From a bacterium (lineage in GTDB: Bacteria > Patescibacteriota > Microgenomatia > UBA8517), in contig CP129472.1 in the NCBI GenBank assembly GCA_030583725.1, positions 465,902-529,901 of the forward strand: 64,000 bases of DNA, in the 5' to 3' direction. The first letter of the stretch is position 1. The number at the start of each line of letters is the position of its first letter. Both the position numbers and the translations under genes were made by a program. This document shows, one piece after another, positions 1 through 50,168 of this stretch. The notes below the pieces were generated by a model that worked only from the letters and a program-made list of their open reading frames with translations, was not told where the DNA came from and did not search any database.

Positions 1-2943
1 TTATCCTCGACCATATGGGTCAGCTTTAGAATATAACCAACACCAACCACCGTATCTTCCTTAAATTCCTCACCGGTTCTACCATCAATTAACCTGGCCT
101 TACCATTTACTGGCAAGTTGGCTTTTTTAAGTTCATTTACCAAGTCATTCTCTGTAATATGATCAAATACTGGAAATGCTCCTCTTTCGTTATTCTTATG
201 AAGTGCCAAACCAAAGTGGGCCTCTAAAAGCTGTCCCAAGTTCATACGAGAAAGAATTGAAAGTGGAGAAATAATCACATCAACTGGTGTACCATCAGAA
301 AGATACGGCATATCAGATACGGACATTATTTTTGCAATGACACCCTTGTTACCATGTCTTCCTGCAATTTTGTCTCCCACAGTAATTTTTCTTATTTGAG
401 CTACTTTAACTATAATCTTCTCAATAACTCCAGGGCCCAAGTCATCACCCTTACTTCGGCTCAAAATATTTACACCAACCACAATACCTTTCTCTCCGTG
501 AGGAACACGAAGTGAAGTATCTCTAACTTCTCGTGCCTTTTCGCCAAAGATGGCCCTTAACAACCTCTCTTCTGACGTTAATTCAGTTTCACCCTTTGGT
601 GCAATTTTACCAACTAAGATATCATTTGGCCCAACTTCGGCACCAATTACAACGATTCCATCATCAGCCAAATTTGAAAGTTCAGATTCAGAAACATTTG
701 GAATATCCTTTGTTCTTTCTTCTGCTCCTAATTTTGTGTCCACTACCTCAGCATCATATTCCTCGATATGGATTGAGGTTAATAAGTCTTCTTTAACTAA
801 CCTCTCAGAAATTAAGATTGCGTCCTCAAATCCATAACCCCCAAAGGATGTATAGGCCACCATTAAGTTTCGACCAAGTGCCAATTCTCCGTCCTGACTA
901 GCGGGTCCATCGACCAGCAAATCTCCCTCGTTAACTTTGTCACCCGGTTTAACAACTACACGTTGATTGTAGCAGGTTGAATGAGCTGTTTTCTTAAATT
1001 TAACAAGTGAATAAACTTCTTTTTTGCCGTTTTCAATAATTTCAATATCTTCGTTGTTACTAATTTTTTCAAGATCCTCGATGGAGACCTTTTTATCCAG
1101 TTTTATTACTATTTTTTCATTGTCTGCATATTCAACAATACCACTATGCCTTGCCAAAATGTTTCTAATCATTGCTTTTGAAATCTCGGATTCCATGCCA
1201 GTTCCAACAACTGGAGCATCAGGTGCAACCAGTGGCACAGCCTGACATTGCATGTTAGAACCCATCAATGCCCTGTTTCCTTCATCGTGAGCCAAGAATG
1301 GAATTAATGAGGCAGAGGTACCCACCAACTGCCTTGGTGTAATATCTATGTAGTCAACTAAACTTGATGGACCTTCAACAAAGTTACCCATATGTCTTAG
1401 TGGAACTCTGGCGTCAGTTATATATCCATCTTTATCAATACCCACTCCTGAATGGGTAATATTATAAGTTTCTTCATCATCAGCCGTTAAGTAAACGATT
1501 TCATCTAGAATTTTTACCTTTTTACCTTTTTTTTCTACTTTTCTATAAGGTGATTCCAAAAATCCAAACTCATTAACTTTTGCATACAATGATAAATATG
1601 TGACCAAACCAATATTAGGACCCTCTGGGGACCTGACAGGATCTAACCTTCCGTATTGGGAAGAGTTTACGTCTCTAATTGAGAAGGATGCTCTTTCTTT
1701 ATTTATTCCACCAGAACCTAAAACAGAAACTCTTCTTAGATTATCAACTTCAGAAAGTGGGTTTGTGTCATCTAGAATTGTTGACAATTGATTACTTCTA
1801 AAAAATTCATTAAGTGATGAAATTAGTGGTCTGGCGTTAATTAAATTCGAAGGGAGTGGCCTGTCGTCAGCTGATATCAAGCTCATTTTCTCTTTAACTG
1901 ACCTCTCAAGCCTTAATAGTCCTATACGAAATGCGTTAACAGAAACCAACTCTCCAACTCTTCTTAATCTTCGATTTGAAAGATGGTCAATATCATCAAC
2001 TCTTCCTGTACCATTTTGTAAACCAATTAAATACGTAAGTGAAGCAGTGATATCTTTCAAGGTTAGAACGTTTGCAGACTTGTCAGTCCTTGAAAGAGGC
2101 AGTCTTTTTCCTATTTTGTATCTACCTACCTCACCTAAGTCATATCTTCTCTTGTCTAAAAACATATTCTCGAATAAATTTGTGGCGTTTTCAATTAAAA
2201 CAGGTTCACCAGGTCTTAATTTTCTATATATCTCAAGAAGTGCGTCATCTTTTCCTTTTGTGGCATCCTTTGCAAGTGTTGCCTCTATGTATTTATGATC
2301 TTTATCTATATCTACTTCTTTAAAGAAATTGATTATTTCATTTTCACTCTCTAACCCTAAAGCTTTCAAAAATACTGTTGCAAGAACTTTTTTTCTTCTA
2401 TCGATTCTTGCATATATCAAATCATTTTTGTTTGCCTCAAATTCAAGCCATGAACCATGGAGTGGTCTTACTTCTGCTTTGTGTAATAATCTACCTGAAG
2501 TTGGGTCTGCCTCTGCAGAAAAATAAATTCCAGGACTTCTGACAATTTGGTTAATAACAGCTCTCTCAATACCGTTTATGATAAATGTACCCCTAACAGT
2601 CATCTGTGGTAGTTCACCTAAAAACACTTCTTGGCTGACTTCTTTACCTGTTCTTTTATTAATTAATGTGGCTGTAATTTTTAATGGAGTTGCATATGTT
2701 AATCCTTTTTCTTGGGCATAACTTGCAGTGATTGAGGGTTTACCAAGTGAATAATCACCCAACGCTAATTGCCAATTCTTGCCAGTAAAGTCGTCGATCG
2801 GAGATATTGCTTGAAGTTCTTCACCTACACCTTTTTTTAAAAACCAATCCCAAGATTCTCTTTGAACTAATGTCAAATCAAGTTTAGGAAGGTTTTTTTC
2901 TACTTTCCCAAAATTTCGGCGCAAGTTAGTTTTTGATTTCATT
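1..2943 (-). CDS. rpoB: DNA-directed RNA polymerase beta subunit (partial, C-terminus beyond window start)
   Basis: Minus-strand translation from the ATG at 2943 begins MKSKTNLRRNFGKVEKNLPKLDLTLVQRESWDWFL. Near position 1 the same frame gives EDTVVGVGYILKLTHMVEDK, matching the conserved RpoB GYMYMLKLHHLVDDK region. The ORF has no stop inside the window, which is why it is missing from the ORF track. Confidence 0.9.
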
Positions 2944-2997
2944 AAGCTTAGGTGATAGGTGATACAAGATAAGCCTACGTAAGTAGACCTAATGGGG

Positions 2998-3025
2998 ATT
3001 ATATATAAATTTTGATAAGTGTCAA
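2998..3025 (-). promoter_or_regulatory. sigma70-like promoter for rpoB (TTGACA-16-TATAAT)
   Basis: Minus-strand reading: TTGACA (plus coordinates 3020-3025), a 16-nt spacer, then TATAAT (2998-3003). This sits about 50 nt upstream of the rpoB ATG and 11 nt past the mltG stop. Confidence 0.55.
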
Positions 3026-3035
3026 CAAGTAAAAA

Positions 3036-5238: not shown

Positions 5239-7302
5239 CTACTCTTCAACGGCAAAACTCACTGTCATTCTTTTGGGTATATGGGGAAGAGTTCCCAGCT
5301 TACCGGGGAATAACGGTTTTATTTTAAACTCTGCCTTAGTAAATCCTGTAATACTAGAGAAGTAGTCCTCGGCAAGTTCAGGGTATTTACCTGCTATTTT
5401 CTTTGCAATTTCACCCTCGTCTATGTCTGGTAACAGATTTGCCGTTACTCTTACATTAAAGAGGTCATCTTCAGCCATGATTTCGTATTCAATCTGATCA
5501 TCTTTTAGAACAAAATTCGTAGGAATCTTGTCATTTAGTATTTCTTTAGATTTGGCTAAGAGTTCATCTTTAGAAATGGATATAATTTTAACATCAAGTT
5601 TCAACGACAATTTGATAGATGTGGCCTCATCACCAACTTTATTACTAAACTGTTCGTCACGAGAAACAATTTCAACTGACGAGTCAATAAGTATCTGATT
5701 GGAATCAAGTTTTTGTGAAATTTGAGATTTTGCGTCATTTAGTAATTCTTCTGTTAACTCATCTAGTATTTTCTTTCTATCGCTTTCACTAACTGCCGAA
5801 ATTTGACGACTTGAACCACCACCAAAACCATCAAGGGAAATGGCATCAACCTCAGCTTTTGGATAATTCCCCACCTTAAATATCTCGTCTTTGGATATGT
5901 TATATTCTGAACCAATACTTCCCGCTTCCACCTCTATTTCTCCAGTTCCAGGATTTGATGGAGACAATGCACCAGAGATAGATGCTGAACTTAAAGTTAC
6001 AAATTTTAAATCTGACGAGGACAACAAAGTACTTCCCGCTGCTAAGTTGATAGGAAAGGCTGTGCCATTTTGAACCTTTACCTTACCTTTTGACTTTTCT
6101 CCAACAGTTTTTGTGCCAGTTGTAGAAATAGTTTTTTCACCACTGACGCTTATCTCATTTTCACTAGTCTTAATACTTGAATCTGACTGTATCTCTATAT
6201 TCTCCTCAATTTGTTTTGGTGAAACATATATGGTCACCACAGCTTTAGGTAAAAACCACCACAAAAGAAAACTTGCCACAACTAAAGTCAGGGCTCCGGA
6301 ACCCGCAACTACCAACATCTTGTTGTTTAAATTTAGTTTAGGCATTTTTATACTAGGCCTACTAAAAGTGGTTAGACCTTTAATTTTATTTTTTAAATCA
6401 GGAAGCTGTATTTTTTGGGTTATTGGAAGATCTGGTTCTTCTTTGACAAAACCCAACTCTTCAGCAGTCAGTTTATTAGGCTCTTGAATGTTTTCAACCT
6501 CTTCTGATTCCAAACTTTCAACAACTGTTTCATCAGGCAGTTGACTGTCTTCAACACCACCAACAGCCCCCAGTTCAGATCCACCAGCTAAGGCAACTGC
6601 AATTATCTTTTTCTCTGGGTCAAAAACTTCTATCTTTGGCGTATGGATAAACTTGCTTTGACCTACTTTTTCCCAATCCGAGTTGTTTAAAATTTCTTTA
6701 ACATCTTCTAGTTCTTGCTCTTTCTGGTTATACAAAACGATCCTAGAAGGAAAATTTTCAACTGTATCTTTTAATCTTGTGAGTCCTTCCATTAAATCAT
6801 CTTCCACCGAAACACTTCTTAAAACGTTTGTAACACCAGATAAAGTTCCCAAATTAAATATTGCAATTTCTATATTCTGGTCACTAAGTCCTAAGACTAA
6901 AGCATTAGTGTCGCCATGATCTTCACTTTTAAGAAAGTGGGAGATAGCTTCAGAAAGTACTACAAAACCAGAGGGAACAAGTGATAGCTTCTCACAAATT
7001 ACTTTTAACTCCTCAAGTTTTTCAGGTTTTATGTTTCCATCTTCTATCCAGTTGTTAGATAAACCGAATACCGTCCTACTGGGATCCATTGACTCTTCAG
7101 GTAAAAACTGTGAACAAGCGGATAGTGAAGTATCAATTGCTTCCAATAAATTGTCTTCCCAACGGGTTGGTGGAGATTTTGCGATAACTTCTACCTTACC
7201 ATCTTTTATTTGCCAGACGGCAGAAGTAATCCATTCCGGCTCAATTAAAAGAGCCCAAAAATTCTCTGTATTAGGTTTTTGTTTTTGAAGAAAGTCCAAC
7301 AT
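5239..7302 (-). CDS. hypothetical bitopic membrane protein (N-terminal cytoplasmic domain possibly FtsA/PilM-like, large S/T-rich ectodomain)
   Basis: 687 aa with a single transmembrane helix (MLVVAGSGALTLVVASFLLWWFL) near residue 340. The N-terminal roughly 250 aa (WALLIEPEWITSAVWQIKDGKVEVIAKSPP...) resemble the start of actin-fold FtsA/PilM-type proteins, but this assignment is tentative. The gene is tightly coupled to the sortase gene. Confidence 0.5.
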   Translation of the reverse strand: MLDFLQKQKPNTENFWALLIEPEWITSAVWQIKDGKVEVIAKSPPTRWEDNLLEAIDTSLSACSQFLPEESMDPSRTVFGLSNNWIEDGNIKPEKLEELKVICEKLSLVPSGFVVLSEAISHFLKSEDHGDTNALVLGLSDQNIEIAIFNLGTLSGVTNVLRSVSVEDDLMEGLTRLKDTVENFPSRIVLYNQKEQELEDVKEILNNSDWEKVGQSKFIHTPKIEVFDPEKKIIAVALAGGSELGAVGGVEDSQLPDETVVESLESEEVENIQEPNKLTAEELGFVKEEPDLPITQKIQLPDLKNKIKGLTTFSRPSIKMPKLNLNNKMLVVAGSGALTLVVASFLLWWFLPKAVVTIYVSPKQIEENIEIQSDSSIKTSENEISVSGEKTISTTGTKTVGEKSKGKVKVQNGTAFPINLAAGSTLLSSSDLKFVTLSSASISGALSPSNPGTGEIEVEAGSIGSEYNISKDEIFKVGNYPKAEVDAISLDGFGGGSSRQISAVSESDRKKILDELTEELLNDAKSQISQKLDSNQILIDSSVEIVSRDEQFSNKVGDEATSIKLSLKLDVKIISISKDELLAKSKEILNDKIPTNFVLKDDQIEYEIMAEDDLFNVRVTANLLPDIDEGEIAKKIAGKYPELAEDYFSSITGFTKAEFKIKPLFPGKLGTLPHIPKRMTVSFAVEE

Positions 7303-41353: not shown

Positions 41354-43183
41354 ATGGATAATTTAAATAAACAGCAGATTGAGGCGGTGGAATATGTAAA
41401 CGGTCCACTATTGGTACTTGCTGGCGCAGGTTCAGGAAAGACCAAAGTTTTAACACATAGGGTAATACATTTAATTAACAAAAAACTTGTTAATCCAGAA
41501 AACTGTCTCCTTTTAACTTTTACCAACAAGGCCGCCAAAGAGATGAATGAAAGGATGGGTGATATTAATTTGGGGTTTGCTGGTACTTTTCATGGTTTTA
41601 GTGTTAGGGTTCTCCGAGCTGATGGTAAAGCCATTGGGATTGATCAAAACTTTTTAATATATGATGACAATGACCAAAAGGACTTGATTAAAGATATTGT
41701 TAATAAATTAAATATCAAGGATTCTGTTAAACCTGCTTCTATTCTTTACTCTATAAGTGAAATAAAAAACCAGATGCTTACTCCAAGCAGTTATGCAGAA
41801 ATTGCTGTTGGTGATTTTGGTAGAACAGTTGCAGATGTTTACTTTGAATATGAAAAAAAGTTAAAAGAAATAAATGCATTAGATTTTGATGATTTGTTAA
41901 TAAAAACAGTTTTGCTTTTTGAAGTTCCTGAAGTTATCAATAAGTGGAGAAATAGAATTAAACAAATATTTGTTGATGAATGGCAAGACACCAATAAAAT
42001 ACAGTATAGGCTAATTAGACTGTTGGACGGCAATAGGGGAATTGTTACTGCTGTGGGTGATAGTAGTCAATCGATTTACAGTTGGCGTGGCGCAGATTAT
42101 AGAAACATAAATCTATTAATTAAAGACTATCCCCAGATAAAAGTTGTTAATTTGGAGCAAAACTACCGCAGTACACAAAACATCTTGGAAGCTGCAAATT
42201 CTGTAATATCAAAAAACACCAGTCATCCAATTTTGAAACTTTGGACAGAAAAGGGATTGGGTGAAAAGATATCGATTTACTCCGCAAGGAGCGGTTTTGA
42301 TGAAGCAGAATACCTATCTCGAGAAATTACAAGAACTGTCAAGGTCGGTAAAAACAAATACTTAGACATTGCAGTTTTATATAGAACAAATGCACAATCC
42401 CGTGTCATAGAAGAAGCCTTGTTACATTCTGGAATTCCATACACATTAATCGGCGGTGTAAGGTTCTATGACCGAAAAGAAATTAAGGACATACTTTCAT
42501 ACCTTAGGTTAATTGCCAATCCTAAGGATATAGTTTCTCAAAAAAGAGCTCTGGCATTAGGCAAGCGTAGGTTTGAAAAATTTCAAAGTATTAATGTTGA
42601 TACAGAAACACATACAACTCTTGAAATAATGGATATTATCCTTGCAAAAACTGAGTACTTAACTAAGTTCAAGGAGGTTGACCCAGAAGACGCAGAACGT
42701 TTGGAAAACATAAAGGAGTTTAGATCTGTTGCCATTGAGTTTCCAAATATATATGACTTTTTGGAAAATACAGCCCTAGTCGAAGCTGGCTCAAACAAAA
42801 ATAGTAATAAAAATGCTATTACACTAATGACTCTTCACTCAGCAAAAGGTTTAGAATTTCCAATTGTTTTTATGGTTGGAATGGAAGAAGGATTGTTTCC
42901 TCATTCAAGATCACTTTGGGAAAAAGATCAAATGGAGGAAGAAAGAAGGCTTTGTTATGTTGGAATAACCAGAGCCAAAGAAGTACTATATATGACCTAT
43001 GCCAGTAAACGACTTTTTTACGGTGAAACATCTTCTAACTCACCAAGCAGGTTTTTGTCAGACATACCTGAAGAATTGTTAAATGGTAGAATCGAAACGG
43101 TTGCAGGAAATAGTGATAATGATTCACAAATCAGCGATAATGACCTTAATTTCGATGATATACTAGATAAGTATTTAAAATGA
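41354..43183 (+). CDS. UvrD/PcrA-family ATP-dependent DNA helicase (short)
   Basis: Walker A AGAGSGKTKVLT, motifs DEWQDTN and VGDSSQSIYSWRGA. Length is 609 aa. Confidence 0.85.
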   Translation: MDNLNKQQIEAVEYVNGPLLVLAGAGSGKTKVLTHRVIHLINKKLVNPENCLLLTFTNKAAKEMNERMGDINLGFAGTFHGFSVRVLRADGKAIGIDQNFLIYDDNDQKDLIKDIVNKLNIKDSVKPASILYSISEIKNQMLTPSSYAEIAVGDFGRTVADVYFEYEKKLKEINALDFDDLLIKTVLLFEVPEVINKWRNRIKQIFVDEWQDTNKIQYRLIRLLDGNRGIVTAVGDSSQSIYSWRGADYRNINLLIKDYPQIKVVNLEQNYRSTQNILEAANSVISKNTSHPILKLWTEKGLGEKISIYSARSGFDEAEYLSREITRTVKVGKNKYLDIAVLYRTNAQSRVIEEALLHSGIPYTLIGGVRFYDRKEIKDILSYLRLIANPKDIVSQKRALALGKRRFEKFQSINVDTETHTTLEIMDIILAKTEYLTKFKEVDPEDAERLENIKEFRSVAIEFPNIYDFLENTALVEAGSNKNSNKNAITLMTLHSAKGLEFPIVFMVGMEEGLFPHSRSLWEKDQMEEERRLCYVGITRAKEVLYMTYASKRLFYGETSSNSPSRFLSDIPEELLNGRIETVAGNSDNDSQISDNDLNFDDILDKYLK

Positions 43184-44079
43184 TGGACAAGCATCCACTA
43201 CAAACCAGAGAATGGGGAGAGTTTAGGAGAGAGTGGGGGAATATTGTTGAATTTTCAAAAGCTGGACTTATTATATTTAGTAAAATTCCACACACCAATT
43301 ACACAATTGGAACATTAATACGAGGAGAAAAACCCACAAAGACAGACTTGGACACAATTCAAAAAGAATCAGAAAAGCATAATGCCATCTTTGTAAAACT
43401 TGAGCCAAATGTGTTATGGGAAAAGAAACTAGAAAGCAGTTTTCGGGAGTGGGGACTTGTTCAAGGTAAAACACTATTTACCCCAACTTCTTTTTGGATA
43501 GATCTAAAATTAAGTGAAGATGAACTATTGAAGTCATTTACAAGTAAAACTAGGTATAACATAAGGTTGGCACAAAGATATGGCATAGAAGTCAAAATAG
43601 ACAACAGTGACGAGGCTTTTGAAAAATATTTAAAATTGACAGAAGAAACAAACAAAAGACAAGGATTTTACTCACACACACCAAAATATCACAAGCTAAT
43701 GTGGAAGCACTTAAAGAGAAGTGTTGCAAACTTAATGACTGCAACATACAACAACGAGATAGTTTCTACCTGGATTTTGTTTAACAACAAGGACTTCCTT
43801 TACTATCCATATGGGGCTTCAACTAATAAATACAAAGAGATTATGGCCAATAATCTAATGATGTGGGAGGCAATAAGGTTTGGTAAAGTCAAAGGTTTAA
43901 AAACGTTTGACTTGTGGGGCAGGGAAATTGGTACAGGCTTTACTAGATTTAAGGAAGGATATAACCCAAAAGTTGTTGAGTTTGTTGGTAGTTGGGACTT
44001 GGTGGTTAATAGACCAGTATATTTCCTATATAGAATCCTTGAAAAAATTAGATGGTTTATACTTCGCCTTAAAAAATGA
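43180..44079 (+). CDS. FemAB-family peptidyl-transferase (peptidoglycan interpeptide bridge formation), half-size
   Basis: N-terminus ...TREWGEFRREWG, and the FemAB-like central region YNIRLAQRYGIEV. 4-nt overlap with the neighbouring gene. Confidence 0.6.
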   Translation: MMDKHPLQTREWGEFRREWGNIVEFSKAGLIIFSKIPHTNYTIGTLIRGEKPTKTDLDTIQKESEKHNAIFVKLEPNVLWEKKLESSFREWGLVQGKTLFTPTSFWIDLKLSEDELLKSFTSKTRYNIRLAQRYGIEVKIDNSDEAFEKYLKLTEETNKRQGFYSHTPKYHKLMWKHLKRSVANLMTATYNNEIVSTWILFNNKDFLYYPYGASTNKYKEIMANNLMMWEAIRFGKVKGLKTFDLWGREIGTGFTRFKEGYNPKVVEFVGSWDLVVNRPVYFLYRILEKIRWFILRLKK

Positions 44080-44978
44080 TTGCTAAAAAACAATATCTTC
44101 AAGATATAAGACAATCAGAAAACTATGCAAGATACTTAGAATCACAAGGATGGATTGTAGAGAGAATAAACAATATTAACTATTTTATTAAAAAGATTCC
44201 ATTTTTAGGCTCAGTTTTGAAGATCCAAAGGCCTAAAAAGATTGATTTTGGGGTAATAACAAACATAGAAAAAAAATATAGAGTATTTCAAACAATAATT
44301 GAGCCCGATTTAGCCTTCACCAACAGCTTCGTTTCTTACCATAGTTTATTACTACAAAATAGATTTAGATTGTCAAAAAATCCATTTTTACCTTCAAAAA
44401 CTATACACATAGATTTAATACAAAGTAGAGACCAGATTTTCCGTAATTTTTCGAAAGATTGTAAATACTCAATCAGAAAAGGGGAGGGGTTAGAGATTAA
44501 AAAATGCTCAACCCCCGATGAAATTAAATCTTTTCATAATGCATGGAAAAAGTCTGCAAACTTTAACCGGTATGTACCAAGTATCGAGACGCTCGTAAAT
44601 TTAAACCGAAGTTTCCCACAATCCAAGTCTCTATTCCTTACGTCGCACAATAAATCTGGCAGTATTATAGGGGGAGCGATTTTCACGGTCTCTTTACACG
44701 GTGTATCTAACTATATCACACATTATTGGCAAGGTTTTACTAATAAGGAAGGACGCACTTCCCTCTCCCAGTACTCTCTTCTCTATCAAGGTATACTATG
44801 GGGTAAAAAGATGGGTTGTAAAGTTTTTGATTTTGAAGGTATATATGATGAGCGCTTCCCAAATAAATCATGGCTCGGCTTTACCCACTTTAAAAAACAG
44901 TTTGGTGGAAAAGAAGTCCTCTACCCTGGATGTTATAGCCGATTTCGGATATATAACTTATTTCGGTTTTGGAAATAA
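44076..44978 (+). CDS. FemAB-family paralog
   Basis: Second 300-aa protein with the same architecture, including YSIRKGEGLEIK, as an acyl-transferase-fold tandem partner. Confidence 0.5.
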   Translation: MIAKKQYLQDIRQSENYARYLESQGWIVERINNINYFIKKIPFLGSVLKIQRPKKIDFGVITNIEKKYRVFQTIIEPDLAFTNSFVSYHSLLLQNRFRLSKNPFLPSKTIHIDLIQSRDQIFRNFSKDCKYSIRKGEGLEIKKCSTPDEIKSFHNAWKKSANFNRYVPSIETLVNLNRSFPQSKSLFLTSHNKSGSIIGGAIFTVSLHGVSNYITHYWQGFTNKEGRTSLSQYSLLYQGILWGKKMGCKVFDFEGIYDERFPNKSWLGFTHFKKQFGGKEVLYPGCYSRFRIYNLFRFWK

Positions 44979-45009
44979 GGATATATACTAAATTCAGGCT
45001 ACCTAGCTC

Positions 45010-47877
45010 TTAATCCTTACCACAAAACATTGAATACTCACAACCTTGTTGGCAAAAATAGCCATTACTGCATTTGAAGTCACTACTTTCAATTTCTTTC
45101 TTTATTTCAAATATTTCACTTTTAACTTTTTCTATTTGTTCTTCTGTTCTGGTTGATGAAATTTTCTCTTGGTTATCAAAGTAATAGAGTGAAAGTATTA
45201 TGTCTTTCAAATCTTTTTTGTAATTTTCAGACATTGCCAAGGCATATATTGATAACTGTAGATTATTATCTACTTCTTTCTGTGTTGGCAATGTTGCTCC
45301 TGTTTTGTAATCTATTATTTCCAACTTCCCGTTGGGTAAGACGTCTACCCTATCAATTGTTCCTTTAATTTTTAAGTCATTAAACAACTTAAGTGTAAAT
45401 TTTTCTTCCAGTAATTCAGGTACAATATTTTTATTAAAAGAATTTTTAAAATATCCCAACAAATATCCTTTGCCTTTATTATAGAATTCTTCTTTATGTT
45501 TTTTGTTTAAAAAACCTTCTTCTATCCAGTTGTCTTTATATATTCTTAAAACATCACTCTTTGACACATCTAATCCATTTTTAACAGACGTATAGATATC
45601 TTTCAAGGTATTATGTATAGATAAACCAAAAGAGGCAGAAGCATTTTGAGGAGTGGGAATTTTATATATATATTTTAATTTATAATGAAGTGGGCAATTT
45701 TGAAACGTTTCAATGTGACTAACAGAAAGATACTCTACTTTATGAGATGGTTTTGGTGATAATTTCTCTATTACACTCTTTTTGGCATATGGCTCAAGTT
45801 TTTTTTCAGTCAAAATGTTGTCTATAGCCTCCAACTGAGGATAATCAAGCGCTTCTAATACAAATGGTGATATTTTCTTTTTTCTCTTGCCGTCGTTATA
45901 TAAATCACTATATGTTAGATAAAGTCTTTCTTTGGCCCGCGTCATACCAACATAGAAAAGTCTTCTTTCCTCCTGAATATGAAAATCTCCCGACGGTAGT
46001 TCTTCTTTAATCAAATCATCTGGTATCGGCAATATTTCTGATCTGTTTCTACTTGGGAATCTATCTGAAACCAGACTCACCATAAAAACCACAGGAAACT
46101 CTAAGCCTTTTGCTGAATGAACAGTTAGAATATTCACTGCGTTATTCTCTTGCCACTGGGTGTTTGAAACCTGAGGACTTTCTCCTACTTCTAATAGGAG
46201 CTTTATGTAGTCAACAACTTCATATAGTTTTGCTTTTGGGTTTTCATTCTCATACTCTTTAATTCTTTTGAAAAAAAGTGAAATGTTATTAGCTATTACG
46301 ACGTCCCCACTCTCAATTGTTTTTGCATATATGCCAACTTCATTAATAAACTCATATAAAATCTCTCCAGCTGATTTTGTATTTATGTCACTTAAATGTT
46401 TACTTATAAGTTCAGTAACTTTATTAAAATCCTTATCCTTTAATATTTCTTCAAAAAGTGATGTACTCTTTCTCTTCGATTGGCTCAAAAGAAGTGTCAA
46501 TTTGACAGGCTTAAAGTCAAATAGATTGCAGGTTAAAAGCCTAAACAAACTTCCCGTATCTTCGGGGTCATATAGCACTTTAAGGTAAGAAATTAGGTCA
46601 ACTATTTCCTGTCTTTCAAATAGTTTGCTTGGGCCTAAGAATTGATGTGGAATACCCATTCTTTCAAACTCTCTAATAAAAATATCGGCATGGTTGTTGG
46701 CACGGACTAAAATAGCAACATCTTTGTATAGAAGTTGTTGTTTACTATCACTTATTAATGTTTCAATTTCTTTTGCAACTGCCTCCGCCTCACTAGAATC
46801 TTGTTGAGTGTGGATGACTCTAATTTCCTTTCCCTTTGTACTCATTTTAGATACTAGCTTCTTGTCGATCTTTAACTTAGCCTCTAGTGTATATGGGTCG
46901 TTATTTTTGATAAGTCTATATGCTCCATCAAGTATCTTTTGTGTAGATCTGTAGTTTTCATTTAATGTAACTGTGGCTATGTTTTTAAAGTCCTCCTTAA
47001 ATTGCAGTATGTTAGATATAGAGGCGCCACGGAAGCGATAAATAGATTGATTATCATCGCCTACAACAGTTATATTTCTTGACTTCTGAACCAATTTTTT
47101 GACCAATTCATTTTGGGTATAATTAGTATCTTGATATTCGTCAACCAAAACATATTTAAACTTTTCCTGGTATTTAAGTAGTATGTTTGGTCTACTATTA
47201 AATAGCTCTAACGTCTTTGACACTAGATCTCCAAAATCAAACTTTGCACTTTTAAGTTTTAGTTCGCTGTACTCCATATAAACAGTCGCCAGTTCTATCC
47301 ACTTTTGTCCTTCTAGTCGTCCCACTTCATCTCCCTTAGTTTTTAATGCTTTTAATTTTGAGTTTGCCCATTTGAGGTATTCTGTTGGGCTAATTGCTTC
47401 GTCTTGCAATCTACCTATATGTCTTAATATTTCTTCAATAAACTTGTTCGGATTACCTAAAGGTTTAAAGTAGTCCAGACTAAAGTTAAATAAATTTCTC
47501 TTAAAAAGATCTATACTTTCTGCTGTGGTCATCAACTTATAATTTGTGGGGATGCCAATATGAAGTCCTTCTTGTCTTAAGATTTGATCACAAAAAGAAT
47601 GAAACGTTGTTATCCAGATATCACCATATGACAAAGGCATAATCTCGTCCACTCTGGTTTCCATCTCAAGGGCCGCCTTTTCAGTAAAAGTTAAGGCTAA
47701 AATTTCTTCAGGTTTTGCTAATCCTTTTTGAATTAAATACTTAATTCTTTCTGTTATAACCGTTGTTTTTCCTGTTCCTGCGCCAGCAATGATTAACAAA
47801 GGACCTTTTTTATGTTTTATTGCCCTAAGTTGATTTTTGTTTAACTTTTTCTCACGCATACAATGAGATTGTAACAC
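45010..47877 (-). CDS. UvrD-like helicase fused to C-terminal PD-(D/E)xK Cas4/AddB-like Fe-S nuclease domain
   Basis: Walker A AGAGTGKTTV, motifs DEYQDTN and VGDDNQSIYRFRGA. The C-terminus carries DRVD...DYKTG and a four-Cys cluster (CPLHY...CSNGYFCQQGC). Confidence 0.8.
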   Translation of the reverse strand: MLQSHCMREKKLNKNQLRAIKHKKGPLLIIAGAGTGKTTVITERIKYLIQKGLAKPEEILALTFTEKAALEMETRVDEIMPLSYGDIWITTFHSFCDQILRQEGLHIGIPTNYKLMTTAESIDLFKRNLFNFSLDYFKPLGNPNKFIEEILRHIGRLQDEAISPTEYLKWANSKLKALKTKGDEVGRLEGQKWIELATVYMEYSELKLKSAKFDFGDLVSKTLELFNSRPNILLKYQEKFKYVLVDEYQDTNYTQNELVKKLVQKSRNITVVGDDNQSIYRFRGASISNILQFKEDFKNIATVTLNENYRSTQKILDGAYRLIKNNDPYTLEAKLKIDKKLVSKMSTKGKEIRVIHTQQDSSEAEAVAKEIETLISDSKQQLLYKDVAILVRANNHADIFIREFERMGIPHQFLGPSKLFERQEIVDLISYLKVLYDPEDTGSLFRLLTCNLFDFKPVKLTLLLSQSKRKSTSLFEEILKDKDFNKVTELISKHLSDINTKSAGEILYEFINEVGIYAKTIESGDVVIANNISLFFKRIKEYENENPKAKLYEVVDYIKLLLEVGESPQVSNTQWQENNAVNILTVHSAKGLEFPVVFMVSLVSDRFPSRNRSEILPIPDDLIKEELPSGDFHIQEERRLFYVGMTRAKERLYLTYSDLYNDGKRKKKISPFVLEALDYPQLEAIDNILTEKKLEPYAKKSVIEKLSPKPSHKVEYLSVSHIETFQNCPLHYKLKYIYKIPTPQNASASFGLSIHNTLKDIYTSVKNGLDVSKSDVLRIYKDNWIEEGFLNKKHKEEFYNKGKGYLLGYFKNSFNKNIVPELLEEKFTLKLFNDLKIKGTIDRVDVLPNGKLEIIDYKTGATLPTQKEVDNNLQLSIYALAMSENYKKDLKDIILSLYYFDNQEKISSTRTEEQIEKVKSEIFEIKKEIESSDFKCSNGYFCQQGCEYSMFCGKD

Positions 47878-47908: not shown

Positions 47909-48466
47909 TTATTCTTTGCCCAAAACTGAACTCACTACATCTTTAGGCAATGAAACTGCTGACATAAGTGCTTTTCTGACCGAACCTCCGACTTCCGATC
48001 CAATTGCATCTGCTGTTTGCACAGCACTGACAACTGCAGCTTTCGTCCCTTCTGAAACGTCTTGACCTAAACCAGTCAAGCTTTCAACTACACCTTCAAT
48101 GGCAGAAACTGCAATTACTCCTGCATCTTCACCAAGATCACTTGCACCTTTAACTGCCCCAGACACTGCCTTAGCCCCTGCTGATATAACGTCACCACCT
48201 ACTTCTGACACTCCAGAAACTACTGATGAAACCGAGACCTTGGCAATACTCACCACTGCTACTCCCGTGTTTTGAACTGAAACCATTGCAGCTTCTACTA
48301 CATCAGAAGCACTATCTAAAGTTGTTGACCCCACTTCGGAAACATTTTTAAGTGTTCCAACAATTTGGTTTTTAACTGCATCACGAAGCGCTGTTACGAC
48401 ATCATCTGCACCTTTAATTGTTGCAACCAAAGTGTCCTTTAACTCTGTTACTACTTGAGAAATCAT
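47909..48466 (-). CDS. low-complexity Val/Ala/Ser/Gly-rich acidic protein built from ~22-residue repeats
   Basis: 185 aa with five to six repeats containing SEVGG...VSAV. Strong SD AAGGGGGTGA 8 nt upstream of the ATG. Locally GC-enriched coding sequence. Confidence 0.45.
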   Translation of the reverse strand: MISQVVTELKDTLVATIKGADDVVTALRDAVKNQIVGTLKNVSEVGSTTLDSASDVVEAAMVSVQNTGVAVVSIAKVSVSSVVSGVSEVGGDVISAGAKAVSGAVKGASDLGEDAGVIAVSAIEGVVESLTGLGQDVSEGTKAAVVSAVQTADAIGSEVGGSVRKALMSAVSLPKDVVSSVLGKE

Positions 48467-48542
48467 ATATAAATCACCCCCTTTGACATACTACCCACCT
48501 TAGCAATTTTTAAACACGTTTGTCAAACTTTTTTGGTAGAAG

Positions 48543-49469
48543 CTATGATAATTTGTTCTTGGTTACAGTTTCAAAATTCTGTGTATTCTCAATTTTATTT
48601 CCCAAATTAGTAAATGCTGAATACACATTGCTCATCATGTTTGTTGCATTTACTAAATGTTTTTGTAGTACCCCTAAATTTTCTTCTACTTTCCCATAGT
48701 CTTTTTTAATGGCGCGCAATGAAGATAATATTTCTTTTGCTTGTTTCTCTATCTTTTGACCCTCAAAGCTCATTAATATTGCTTTTATGTATGCATAAAA
48801 AGTGGTTGGAGACACAGGAAGTATTCTTTTTTCTCCTGCGTAATCAAAAAGGTTTTGGTTATTAACCACCTCATAATATACAGACTCACTAGGTATATAC
48901 ATTAGAGCGTAGTCTAGGGTTCCTTCATCAACTAGAATATATTTTTTTGAAATATCGTCTATATGTTTTCTAACATCTCTCTCAAAATCTTTCTCTGCTA
49001 GTTTTTTAGTTGACTCATCACCATCGCCCGACATTCTACGAAAGCTTTCCATTGGAAATTTTGAATCAACTGGTATTATGCCTGACGATGTTTTGATGGC
49101 AGCATCTACTTTTTCACCACTTTTGAATGTGTGTTGAAGCAAAAATGATGCCTGTGGTAAAAACTGCTTTAAGAGTTCTTTTAAAACTTGCTCCCCTATG
49201 TTACCTCTTAATTTAGGTGAGGAAAGAAATTGTTGTAGTTCCTTCATTCCCCTACCTATCTCACTAAACTCCCCTATGTTTCTTTGAACTCCGGCTATAA
49301 CTCTCGTTGCATTATCCAACCTTTGATTAAAACTGTCTGATTGTTTTTCAAGCCTTTGATTTGTCATCTTTAAGTATTCCAACAGTTCAGGTGAAGATTT
49401 AGGTTTTGTAACTAAAAAAAGGAGAAATAGAAGTACAATTAGTATTATAATCAAAAGTAGGGTTTCCAT
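48543..49469 (-). CDS. rmuC: DNA recombination protein RmuC
   Basis: N-terminal transmembrane segment and coiled coil. LRGNIGEQVLKELL and IIPVDSKFPMESF match RmuC family motifs. Confidence 0.75.
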   Translation of the reverse strand: METLLLIIILIVLLFLLFLVTKPKSSPELLEYLKMTNQRLEKQSDSFNQRLDNATRVIAGVQRNIGEFSEIGRGMKELQQFLSSPKLRGNIGEQVLKELLKQFLPQASFLLQHTFKSGEKVDAAIKTSSGIIPVDSKFPMESFRRMSGDGDESTKKLAEKDFERDVRKHIDDISKKYILVDEGTLDYALMYIPSESVYYEVVNNQNLFDYAGEKRILPVSPTTFYAYIKAILMSFEGQKIEKQAKEILSSLRAIKKDYGKVEENLGVLQKHLVNATNMMSNVYSAFTNLGNKIENTQNFETVTKNKLS

Positions 49470-49489: not shown

Positions 49490-49825
49490 ATGAAGAAAGA
49501 GCAAAGAAATAAGTTAATACTAAAAAGAAAGAACTTCCTGCCAACTCTTGTTCTGATTTTCGTTTTACTGTTTTCTATTGCAGGACTTATCTACTTTACA
49601 GACCCTAGTCCTTTTTTAATCTTTCTTTTTTTTGTTTTGTTTTTCGCCTTTTCTTTTTTTGTGTTTGCCCTACTTCTTGCAAACACAAAAAGAGCAATTC
49701 TAATTTCAACCATTTTCACCATCTTTTTGTTGCTAATTTTTTATGGAGTTGGTAACATACTTAACCTTTTGTTGTTAATTGGCATAGGTGTAGTAGTTGA
49801 AATATATGCGCGTTTCAAAAAATGA
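49490..49825 (+). CDS. hypothetical small membrane protein
   Basis: 111 aa with three hydrophobic helices and a Phe-rich region. Confidence 0.3.
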   Translation: MKKEQRNKLILKRKNFLPTLVLIFVLLFSIAGLIYFTDPSPFLIFLFFVLFFAFSFFVFALLLANTKRAILISTIFTIFLLLIFYGVGNILNLLLLIGIGVVVEIYARFKK

Positions 49826-50168
49826 GTTAAATAAAAGTTTAAAGAAAGAGGTTATAAATACTTTCCTGCAAACCCTTGACGACCTCAAAAACAAGAGCGA
49901 AAAAGAAACCTTCCTGACGGACTTCTTTAATCAAAATGAGCTTGAAACTTACTCAAAGAGACTAGCTATTATTTACTGGCTTTCAAAAAAAAGAAGTTAT
50001 CAAAATATAAAAACAAATTTAAAAGTATCATCAGCAACCGTTGCAACAGTTGAAAAATTAATGAATAAAAAAGGTATAGAACTAGCAATTACAAAAATGG
50101 CAGCTGAAGAATGGGCAAATGTCTGGAGCGAAAAAATCAAAAGGCTGGGCACTAGGACTAGAAACTAG
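49797..50168 (+). CDS. YerC/YecD (TrpR-like) DNA-binding protein
   Basis: ...KRLAIIYWLSKKRSYQNIKTNLKVSSATVATVEK matches the TrpR-like HTH of the YerC/YecD family. Confidence 0.5.
   Translation: MKYMRVSKNELNKSLKKEVINTFLQTLDDLKNKSEKETFLTDFFNQNELETYSKRLAIIYWLSKKRSYQNIKTNLKVSSATVATVEKLMNKKGIELAITKMAAEEWANVWSEKIKRLGTRTRN

Follow-up and report, generated by a model that had tools for sequence, protein, structure and literature searches.

Examination of a 64,000-nucleotide stretch of a patescibacterial genome (Patescibacteriota; Microgenomatia; UBA8517; assembly GCA_030583725.1, contig CP129472.1, positions 465,902 to 529,901 of the forward strand), which we call the window and whose own numbering is used below, revealed a protein-coding gene at 47909..48466 on the minus strand that belongs to a conserved, uncharacterised family covered by no Pfam or NCBIfam entry. 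The gene, taken from the open reading frame (ORF) list and supported by its orthologues and by the ratio of nonsynonymous to synonymous substitution rates (dN/dS), runs from an ATG start through 185 codons to a stop, and is real and under purifying selection. The family is best described as lying within the known class of alpha-helical repeat proteins while being itself previously unannotated, and it is fairly widespread in Patescibacteria. With a probability of roughly one half, we favour a reading, built in large part on structure prediction, in which the product is a cytoplasmic, probably abundant, non-enzymatic alpha-hairpin solenoid that would serve as a scaffold or adaptor.

A conserved gene under purifying selection

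The family was surveyed with an exhaustive HMMER search over 1.84 billion cluster representatives, which returned 147 clusters at E<=1e-3 and 24 at E<=1e-10. Orthologous loci were located by pattern-guided searches, 34 of them in species-representative genomes and a further 58 in metagenomes; in all, 91 loci carry the gene, which amounts to 69 groups at 90% identity. An earlier note on this DNA, made from the sequence alone, had proposed looking for conservation in relatives and for remote homologues, and had suggested that a protein unconserved outside its own genome would more likely be a spurious ORF. The family is well conserved outside this genome.

Among the species-representative genomes, orthologues occur in Microgenomates/Woesebacteria, WWE3, Dojkabacteria, Saccharibacteria and Amesbacteria. 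Carriers outside the Candidate Phyla Radiation (CPR) are metagenome-assembled genomes (MAGs) labelled Syntrophales, Syntrophorhabdus, Desulfuromonadales, Acidobacteriota, Kiritimatiellia, Anaerolineales and Gemmatimonadota. An identical protein was recovered in two independent sequencing runs, one of which (L001) is the window's own contig. The 34 orthologues form a near-gapless alignment in which they are 35-66% identical to the window protein, with a mean column identity of 60% and ten invariant columns (G19, D21, V31, K32, Q34, G134, A152, L167, L173 and P174). Pairwise dN/dS values among orthologues range from 0.08 to 0.28.

The strong ribosome-binding site claimed in the earlier note is borne out: a Shine-Dalgarno sequence, AAAGGGGGTGA, was read from the sequence at 48474..48484 on the minus strand, seven nucleotides before the ATG, and a AAAGGAGGTGA-like site lies 5' of most orthologues. 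The gene is also visibly richer in GC than its surroundings, as had been noticed, with values of 0.45-0.47 within it and 0.30-0.36 in its flanks. By codon position the GC content is 0.627 (GC1), 0.449 (GC2) and 0.232 (GC3); the last value is at or below the 0.26-0.33 of the neighbouring genes, and synonymous codon choice for Val, Ala, Gly and Ser is that of the neighbours. The raised GC is therefore due to codons that start with G (Val, Ala, Gly, Asp and Glu), that is, to amino acid composition only. In 30 of 33 orthologous loci of other genomes the GC of the gene likewise exceeds that of its flanks. Of the two causes that had been put forward for the enrichment, Ala/Gly/Val codon use thus stands, and foreign origin is rejected on the native GC3 and codon use and on the recurrence of the same offset in other genomes. 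No plasmid homologues of the family were found.

The low-complexity composition of the protein, its lack of an annotated family and an empty result from a word-indexed protein search might have suggested that the ORF is spurious and lies in a GC-rich patch of low complexity or horizontal origin. We regard this explanation as refuted, and its likelihood as negligible, because of the near-gapless conservation across phyla, the dN/dS values well below 1, the conserved Shine-Dalgarno sequence and the native GC3 and codon use.

The searches themselves differed in what they returned. With the window protein alone, nothing significant was found in Pfam, NCBIfam or the PDB sequences. The word-indexed search gave nothing with a single sequence and little with profiles, and it missed the orthologues. 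An exact-sequence look-up in a collection of 15 billion proteins found none of ten family proteins (that of the window and those of L003-L025), though a contig search had located the window protein. Low-complexity families seem to be under-served by word and exact-sequence indexes.

Two sets of loci bear on the taxonomic labels of the carriers. The orthologues of L018, L022, L024, L026, L027 and L029 are mutually 61-84% identical, and the GC of their flanks ranges from 0.46 to 0.67; they come from MAGs assigned to Syntrophales, Acidobacteriota, Syntrophorhabdus, Kiritimatiellia, a deltaproteobacterium and Desulfuromonadales, and the family gene lies in them at about 6001-6567, or at 245-811 or 2465-3031. 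This similarity suggests either horizontal transfer between phyla or mis-binned contigs. Separately, L007, L012, L014, L021 and L036 are low-GC contigs from MAGs labelled uncultured Gammaproteobacteria or Bdellovibrionales, and they show either the Woesebacteria-type synteny of the window (MetRS, TrpR-like, rmuC, helicase) or the arrangement dnaG-rpoD-GT87; the labels of these five are probably wrong.

Repeat anatomy of the protein

The protein consists of eight in-register 22-residue helix-turn repeats over residues 1-176 (47939..48466, minus strand), as found by autocorrelation, Fourier analysis, profile and AlphaFold2 prediction, and of a short terminal helix and tail at residues 177-185 (47912..47938, minus strand), where AlphaFold2 places a helix at 175-182 with lower confidence scores. 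Autocorrelation of the sequence under BLOSUM62, measured against shuffled sequences, gave z scores of 9.1, 5.6 and 4.4 for lags 22, 44 and 66. At lag 2 the autocorrelation was strongly negative, whereas lags 4, 18 and 26 gave positive values, a pattern that indicates helices, not beta-strands. Fourier analysis of hydrophobicity shows one sharp peak, at 98.2 degrees or 3.67 residues per turn (11/3), with z=9.4-9.6, and the periodicity is coherent over all 185 residues. With a width of only about 2 degrees, the peak was visible in harmonic and 1-degree scans and missed by scanning in 5-degree steps. No tandem repeat was found in the gene at the DNA level, and the protein repeats are therefore old and diverged rather than products of recent slippage.

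Pooling eight repeats from each of 34 sequences yielded the consensus V-G-x-D-v-x-x-A-V-k-x-A-V-x-G-A-V-k-x-A-x-E. Positions 1, 5, 9, 13 and 17 of the repeat are Val, Ile or Leu, whereas positions 8, 12, 16 and 20 are Ala and form an AxxxA stripe. Gly occupies position 2 in 62% of units and position 15 in 57%; position 4 is Asp, Ser or Thr, and position 22 is Asp or Glu in 70% of units. Under the rules of helix capping, a Gly directly after the end of a helix followed two residues on by Asp, Ser or Thr makes a C-cap/N-cap pair and a tight helix-turn-helix. In the window protein the boundary recurs as h-G-x-D/E, with instances VGGDV, LGEDA, LGQDV and IGSEV. The periodicity of about 22 residues had been recognised before, with five to six copies of SEVGG..VSAV; the periodicity holds, but there are eight units and a nine-residue tail, and literal SEVG occurs just three times, as does VS[AS]V.

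The units are not interchangeable. Repeats at the same position in different orthologues share 49% identity, as against only 22% for different repeats of one protein, and most of the invariant residues, the single proline included, fall in the first and last units. The most conserved N-terminal segment by column conservation among the 34 orthologues, IKGADDVVTALRDAVKNQIVG (residues 17-37; 48356..48418, minus strand), holds the invariant G19, D21, V31, K32 and Q34 and the near-invariant D22 and A26, and is proposed to be an N-terminal cap or a candidate interaction surface. The conserved C-terminal motif, SVRKALMSAVSLPKD (residues 162-176; 47939..47983, minus strand), holds the invariant L167, L173 and P174, the last being the single invariant proline, together with the near-invariant R164, A166 and D176, and is proposed to be the C-terminal cap. 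The two motifs stand exactly 156 residues apart in 66 of 85 sequences. Of the variants, those shorter by 44 (seven sequences), 11 (three) and 22 residues (one) are the most frequent; because variants of -48, -59, -73 and -80 also occur, we dropped the notion that all indels are multiples of 11. Unit-specific conservation, fixed length and special terminal units point to individually constrained units with capping repeats, and hence to a defined tertiary structure rather than a generic coat.

In composition the window protein is 21.1% Val, 13.5% Ser, 13.0% Ala and 10.8% Gly (58% together), with 22 acidic and 13 basic residues, a net charge of -9 and an isoelectric point (pI) of 4.46, in agreement with the earlier description of an acidic protein rich in these four residues. 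CPR orthologues are acidic as well (pI 4.2-5.0, net charge -5 to -15), while the group outside the CPR is near neutral. Orthologues contain zero to two aromatic residues each and essentially no Cys, and nearly every one has one Pro. The N-terminus, MISQVVTELKD, lacks a basic n-region, and no signal peptide was recognised by inspection and simple hydrophobicity only, as the earlier note had also concluded. A lipobox is excluded in the window protein, which has no Cys, and a conserved segment of transmembrane grade is lacking, a 19-residue Kyte-Doolittle maximum of at least 1.6 being reached in just 2 of the 34 orthologues. The window protein is presumably cytoplasmic and probably well translated, and it contains no catalytic motifs.

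Two further observations concern the DNA of the gene. A perfect TTGACA -35 hexamer lies at 48521-48526 on the minus strand, about 55 nucleotides 5' of the ATG, in the 76-nucleotide gap that follows rmuC; its -10 partner, TAAGGT, 18 nucleotides on, is weak, and a consensus scan called no promoter there. Because the family gene is rich in GNN codons, it has long stop-free antisense ORFs, which reach 188-239 amino acids in three loci (L008 2698-3279, L033 5967-6533 and L034 5565-6284) and 58 amino acids in the window (48099-48275, plus strand). An ORF caller that favours length took the antisense frame in those three loci, and automatic annotation may place the family gene on the wrong strand.

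Predicted fold and likeness to designed repeat proteins

An AlphaFold2 model of the window protein has a mean predicted local distance difference test score (pLDDT) of 88.9 and a predicted template modelling score (pTM) of 0.85. It comprises nine helices (residues 2-19, 23-41, 47-67, 71-88, 93-111, 115-133, 137-155, 157-169 and 175-182), and the loops of one to five residues between them coincide with the G-x-D positions. A relative from Omnitrophica (P0042), 28% identical, is predicted to have the same architecture, with pLDDT 84.8 and pTM 0.78. The predicted fold is that of a two-layer alpha-solenoid of stacked hairpins, a geometry read from these two models and from Foldseek scores (TMq 0.63-0.74) rather than from inspected coordinates.

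When the two models were compared with the PDB by Foldseek, the significant matches were solely to de novo designed helical repeat proteins and to assemblies built from them: 5cwb (E=2.4e-4, TMq 0.63), 8cwy_A (TMq 0.72), 7mwr_B (E=2.1e-3 and TMq 0.74 for the window model; TMq 0.71 at 3.2 A root mean square deviation for P0042) and 6vfi_A (TMq 0.69 at 3.1 A). Natural ARM and TPR structures scored E>0.07 and TMq<0.3 in these comparisons, no natural solenoid family (HEAT, ARM, TPR, Sel1 and similar) was among the reported Pfam matches, and a search of a viral structure library gave no match. The best PDB sequence matches of a profile of the 34 orthologues were again to designed proteins, 5cwc (E=5e-4) and 5cwg (E=1.6e-3), in an alignment that covers the G-x-D-x-S/T-E-A loop.

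The designed helical repeat proteins (DHRs; 5cwb, 5cwc, 5cwd and 5cwg, and the DHR-based 7mwr_B, 6vfi_A and 8cwy_A) resemble the predicted fold of the family in being two-layer solenoids with helices of about 19-20 residues and loops of 2-4, and they share with it the G-x-D-x-S/T-E connection from helix to helix. They differ in being artificial and without common descent with the family, and their repeat unit has two helices, whereas that of the family is a single 22-residue helix. The family in turn has a core rich in Val, Ala and Gly, a positive hydropathy, no aromatics and specialised terminal repeats. The DHR designs are said to have been presented as lying outside natural repeat-protein space.

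Genomic context and wider relatives

In the window the gene is flanked on the same strand by rmuC upstream (48543..49469) and by a gene for a fusion of a UvrD helicase with a PD-(D/E)XK nuclease downstream (45010..47877). The position between these two genes, given in the earlier note, is confirmed by the ORFs, but any functional meaning is not, as this order is present in just about seven Woesebacteria-like loci; a functional operon with rmuC and the helicase-nuclease was rejected since the synteny is lineage-specific. In its commonest setting the gene follows dnaG-rpoD, in some cases with a GT87 glycosyltransferase gene on either side; rpoD is no more than two genes away in 15 of the 69 groups. 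At other loci, the surroundings consist of unrelated genes for housekeeping or metabolism.

In 5 of 79 loci, the ORF immediately downstream, on the same strand, encodes a histidine kinase or receiver; among the remaining flank ORFs the figure is 8 of 653 (Fisher p=0.008). Of the 13 two-component genes in the flanks, 12 are downstream. The evidence links the family weakly to two-component signalling. The five loci are L009 (6710-7075), L017 (6693-7973), L029 (6589-8583, after a gap of 22 nucleotides), L034 (6629-9219) and L085 (the first and second genes downstream), where the two-component genes encode a receiver-only protein, histidine kinases and a hybrid kinase.

Among wider relatives of the family are fusions with receiver domains (P0010, P0063 and P0087), while others carry N-terminal transmembrane regions, a major facilitator superfamily transporter, a PRC-barrel-like domain or strongly basic tails rich in Lys, Arg and Pro. 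Given these varied fusions, the repeat domain behaves as a portable, non-catalytic module.

A proposed scaffold or adaptor and its alternatives

In the reading that we favour, each 22-residue unit would form one amphipathic helix of about 19 residues, which would end in the Gly C-cap and restart two residues on at the Asp/Ser/Thr N-cap, and the pairing of these caps would set successive helices in tight antiparallel hairpins. The AxxxA stripe and the stripe of Val, Ile and Leu would allow very close helix packing, and the packed helices would build a two-layer alpha-solenoid of eight to nine helices, with the first and last units, which are divergent and better conserved, serving as caps. A partner may be bound through the conserved caps and the surface of Ser, Thr, Asp and Lys. 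Binding of a partner is proposed because some relatives carry the repeat domain joined to receiver domains, membrane tails or basic tails, and because a two-component gene stands downstream in the five loci given above; the role as scaffold or adaptor is our inference from these features.

Several points weigh against a solenoid scaffold or adaptor. The grand average of hydropathicity (GRAVY), +0.52 in the window protein and +0.21 to +0.52 among orthologues, together with the absence of aromatics, is odd for a protein that is soluble and globular. The fold is a prediction, the window model was built on an alignment of just 26 sequences, and AlphaFold2, whose training set included the 2015 DHR crystal structures as far as is known, may impose an ideal geometry on any regular repeat of amphipathic helices. 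Across the loci examined, no neighbour or partner proved to be conserved, and literature searches gave no relevant expression or proteomic evidence for the family. Finally, the sub-threshold Pfam matches of 148 family members concentrate on coat proteins of lipid monolayers and granules: Phasin_2 (20 of 148 members, best E 6.3e-4), Senescence (17, 1.8e-4), Chlorosome_CsmC (7, 5e-5), Perilipin (6, 0.012), BMFP (5, 0.046), Apolipoprotein (PF01442; 3, 0.008) and ApoLp-III (PF07464; 2, 0.034).

These matches are the starting point for the alternative that we take most seriously, although we consider it possible rather than probable: an exchangeable amphipathic coat like apolipophorin-III, apoA-I, phasins or perilipins, in which a compact bundle would open and lay its Val/Ala faces onto a hydrophobic surface such as a lipid monolayer, a storage granule, a damaged membrane or scavenged host lipid. 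The amphipathic 22-mer/11-mer periodicity that runs coherently through the 185 residues, the positive GRAVY, the hydrophobic face of small residues and the basic tails of some wider relatives all accord with a coat, and the predicted compact state is compatible with one, since apolipophorin-III too is a closed bundle. None of the coat-family matches, however, reaches its family threshold, and the window protein itself has none to PF01442, PF07464, the phasins or the perilipins. The phasin matches that were checked (PF09361) fall below the gathering score, at 20.4 bits for a cut-off of 24.9, and NCBIfam adds just weak phasin matches (TIGR01985) in six relatives with a best E of 0.035. Judged from sequence, such matches would reflect a similarity of periodic composition, a likeness rather than membership. 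Genes for polyhydroxyalkanoate synthesis were absent among the annotated neighbours in the window and some 30 flanking proteins of other loci, nor were lipid-storage genes seen among the neighbours examined. The acidity of the CPR orthologues disfavours binding to anionic bacterial membranes, the hydrophobic moments of the individual helices are moderate (0.25-0.47), and a generic coat would require neither such position-specific conservation nor so fixed a length.

Comparison with the individual coat families is instructive. The earlier note had likened the helices to those of apolipoproteins, phasins or late embryogenesis abundant (LEA) proteins; the amphipathic 22-residue helices and a resemblance in kind to the first two hold up, whereas membership in either family and the LEA type do not. 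ApoA-I and apolipophorin-III share with the family tandem 22-residue amphipathic helices, a periodicity of 3.67 residues and regular punctuation between helices. The punctuation is Gly/Asp in the family and Pro in exchangeable apolipoproteins, however, and the polar face is acidic or rich in Ser and Thr rather than of the Lys/Glu class-A pattern of apolipoproteins; the family is also bacterial, apparently cytoplasmic and without a signal peptide, and its match to the profile is sub-threshold. Phasins are likewise small all-helical amphipathic proteins of similar length, and Phasin_2 is the most frequent weak match; the Lys/Arg/Pro-rich tails of some wider relatives recall the PhaF type of phasin, which carries basic tails. 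To our knowledge, phasins are not 22-mer repeat proteins. The 11-mers of perilipin and alpha-synuclein and the Senescence domain of spartin have the 11/3 periodicity and a hydrophobic face of Val, Ala, Thr and Gly, but proteins of the perilipin/synuclein type are basic and disordered until bound to lipid, whereas the family is predicted to be folded, is acidic in its CPR members and has conserved turn motifs and caps. The basic polar face of that type is not seen in the window protein, given its charge and pI.

The remaining alternatives appear less likely. It is doubtful, though conceivable, that the protein is an accessory or output module of two-component systems, a solenoid that docks on a histidine kinase or response regulator and modulates or relays signalling. 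The receiver-domain fusions and the downstream kinase or receiver genes speak for such a role, but the association is found in only about 6% of loci, of which L017 and L034 share synteny and so are not independent; in the window, no two-component gene lies within 6 kb of the family gene, and the commonest neighbours are rpoD and dnaG. An extended coiled coil or fibre related to phage tail tape-measure proteins, with continuous helices that oligomerise to a rod or filament, strikes us as rather improbable. Tape-measure PHROGs were matched by 22 of the 34 orthologues (phrog_58, best E=1.4e-8; phrog_1272; phrog_5493), and as eight composition-preserving shuffles gave no such match, the match depends on residue order; the 11/3 periodicity moreover suits right-handed coiled coils. 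The likeness to tape-measure proteins (PHROGs 58, 1272, 5493 and 1535) extends over about 150 residues of their central helical part rich in Ala, Gly and Val. Tape-measure proteins are much larger, however, whereas the family gene encodes a stand-alone protein of 185 residues on the chromosome beside housekeeping genes, and the Gly/Asp turn motifs every 22 residues and the hairpins of the model oppose continuous helices. A tblastn search of 50,697 phage genomes gave no match and the IMG/VR viral contigs held no relative, and phage origin was accordingly rejected. An intrinsically disordered, LEA-like stress protectant is very unlikely. Its 11-mer-based periodicity would fit, and a gene for a BON-domain protein lies upstream in one locus, but LEA proteins are strongly hydrophilic, and the LEA type (PF02987, LEA_4) was rejected on the GRAVY of +0.52 and the confidently predicted compact fold; the list of the 25 Pfam families with the most matches does not include LEA_4.

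A more adventurous combination of these ideas, to which we give little credence, is that the family is a natural counterpart of the DHR architecture and acts as an abundant "bacterial apolipoprotein" in Patescibacteria that are auxotrophic for lipids. A closed solenoid with a Val/Ala core would then open to chaperone or coat lipids or other hydrophobic material scavenged from the host, perhaps under two-component control in some lineages.

Patescibacteria have genomes of roughly 1 Mb in which a large share of genes lack a known function. The gene has been kept in four major lineages of the group at nearly fixed length and with a strong ribosome-binding site, which makes an abundant protein with a role worth knowing likely. 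If the predictions hold, nature would have produced a family whose nearest counterparts in the PDB, by predicted fold and by sequence profile alike, are computer-designed repeat proteins, and the family would offer a simple case in which to test how the packing of small residues (AxxxA) builds a solenoid. Were the coat explanation true, the family would bear on lipid handling by lipid-dependent episymbionts. Its most striking feature, the DHR-like architecture, rests on prediction. The family merits a profile entry as a domain of unknown function.

Other features of the window

The region downstream of the gene contains two UvrD-family helicases within 41354-47877. One is PcrA/UvrD-like (41354-43183, plus strand); the other, of 955 amino acids, is the helicase-nuclease at 45010-47877 (minus strand), whose nuclease part is PD-(D/E)XK/Cas4-like. 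Between them lie tandem ORFs of about 300 amino acids, one of the FemAB family (43180-44079) and one with no Pfam match on record (44076-44978). In the run of genes at 41354-44978, each start overlaps the stop of the preceding gene. Rfam gave a gathering-level match to RF03531 ("C. difficile sRNA included into helicase gene") at 42913-43008 (plus strand), inside the UvrD-like coding sequence, and this most likely reflects conserved helicase coding sequence rather than a small RNA.

On the other side of rmuC, the window encodes a very hydrophobic small membrane protein of 111 amino acids (49490-49825, plus strand), which is kept beside rmuC in Woesebacteria-like loci (cluster c1). Its gene is overlapped by 29 nucleotides by that of a 120-amino-acid protein of the Trp-repressor family (49797-50168, plus strand).

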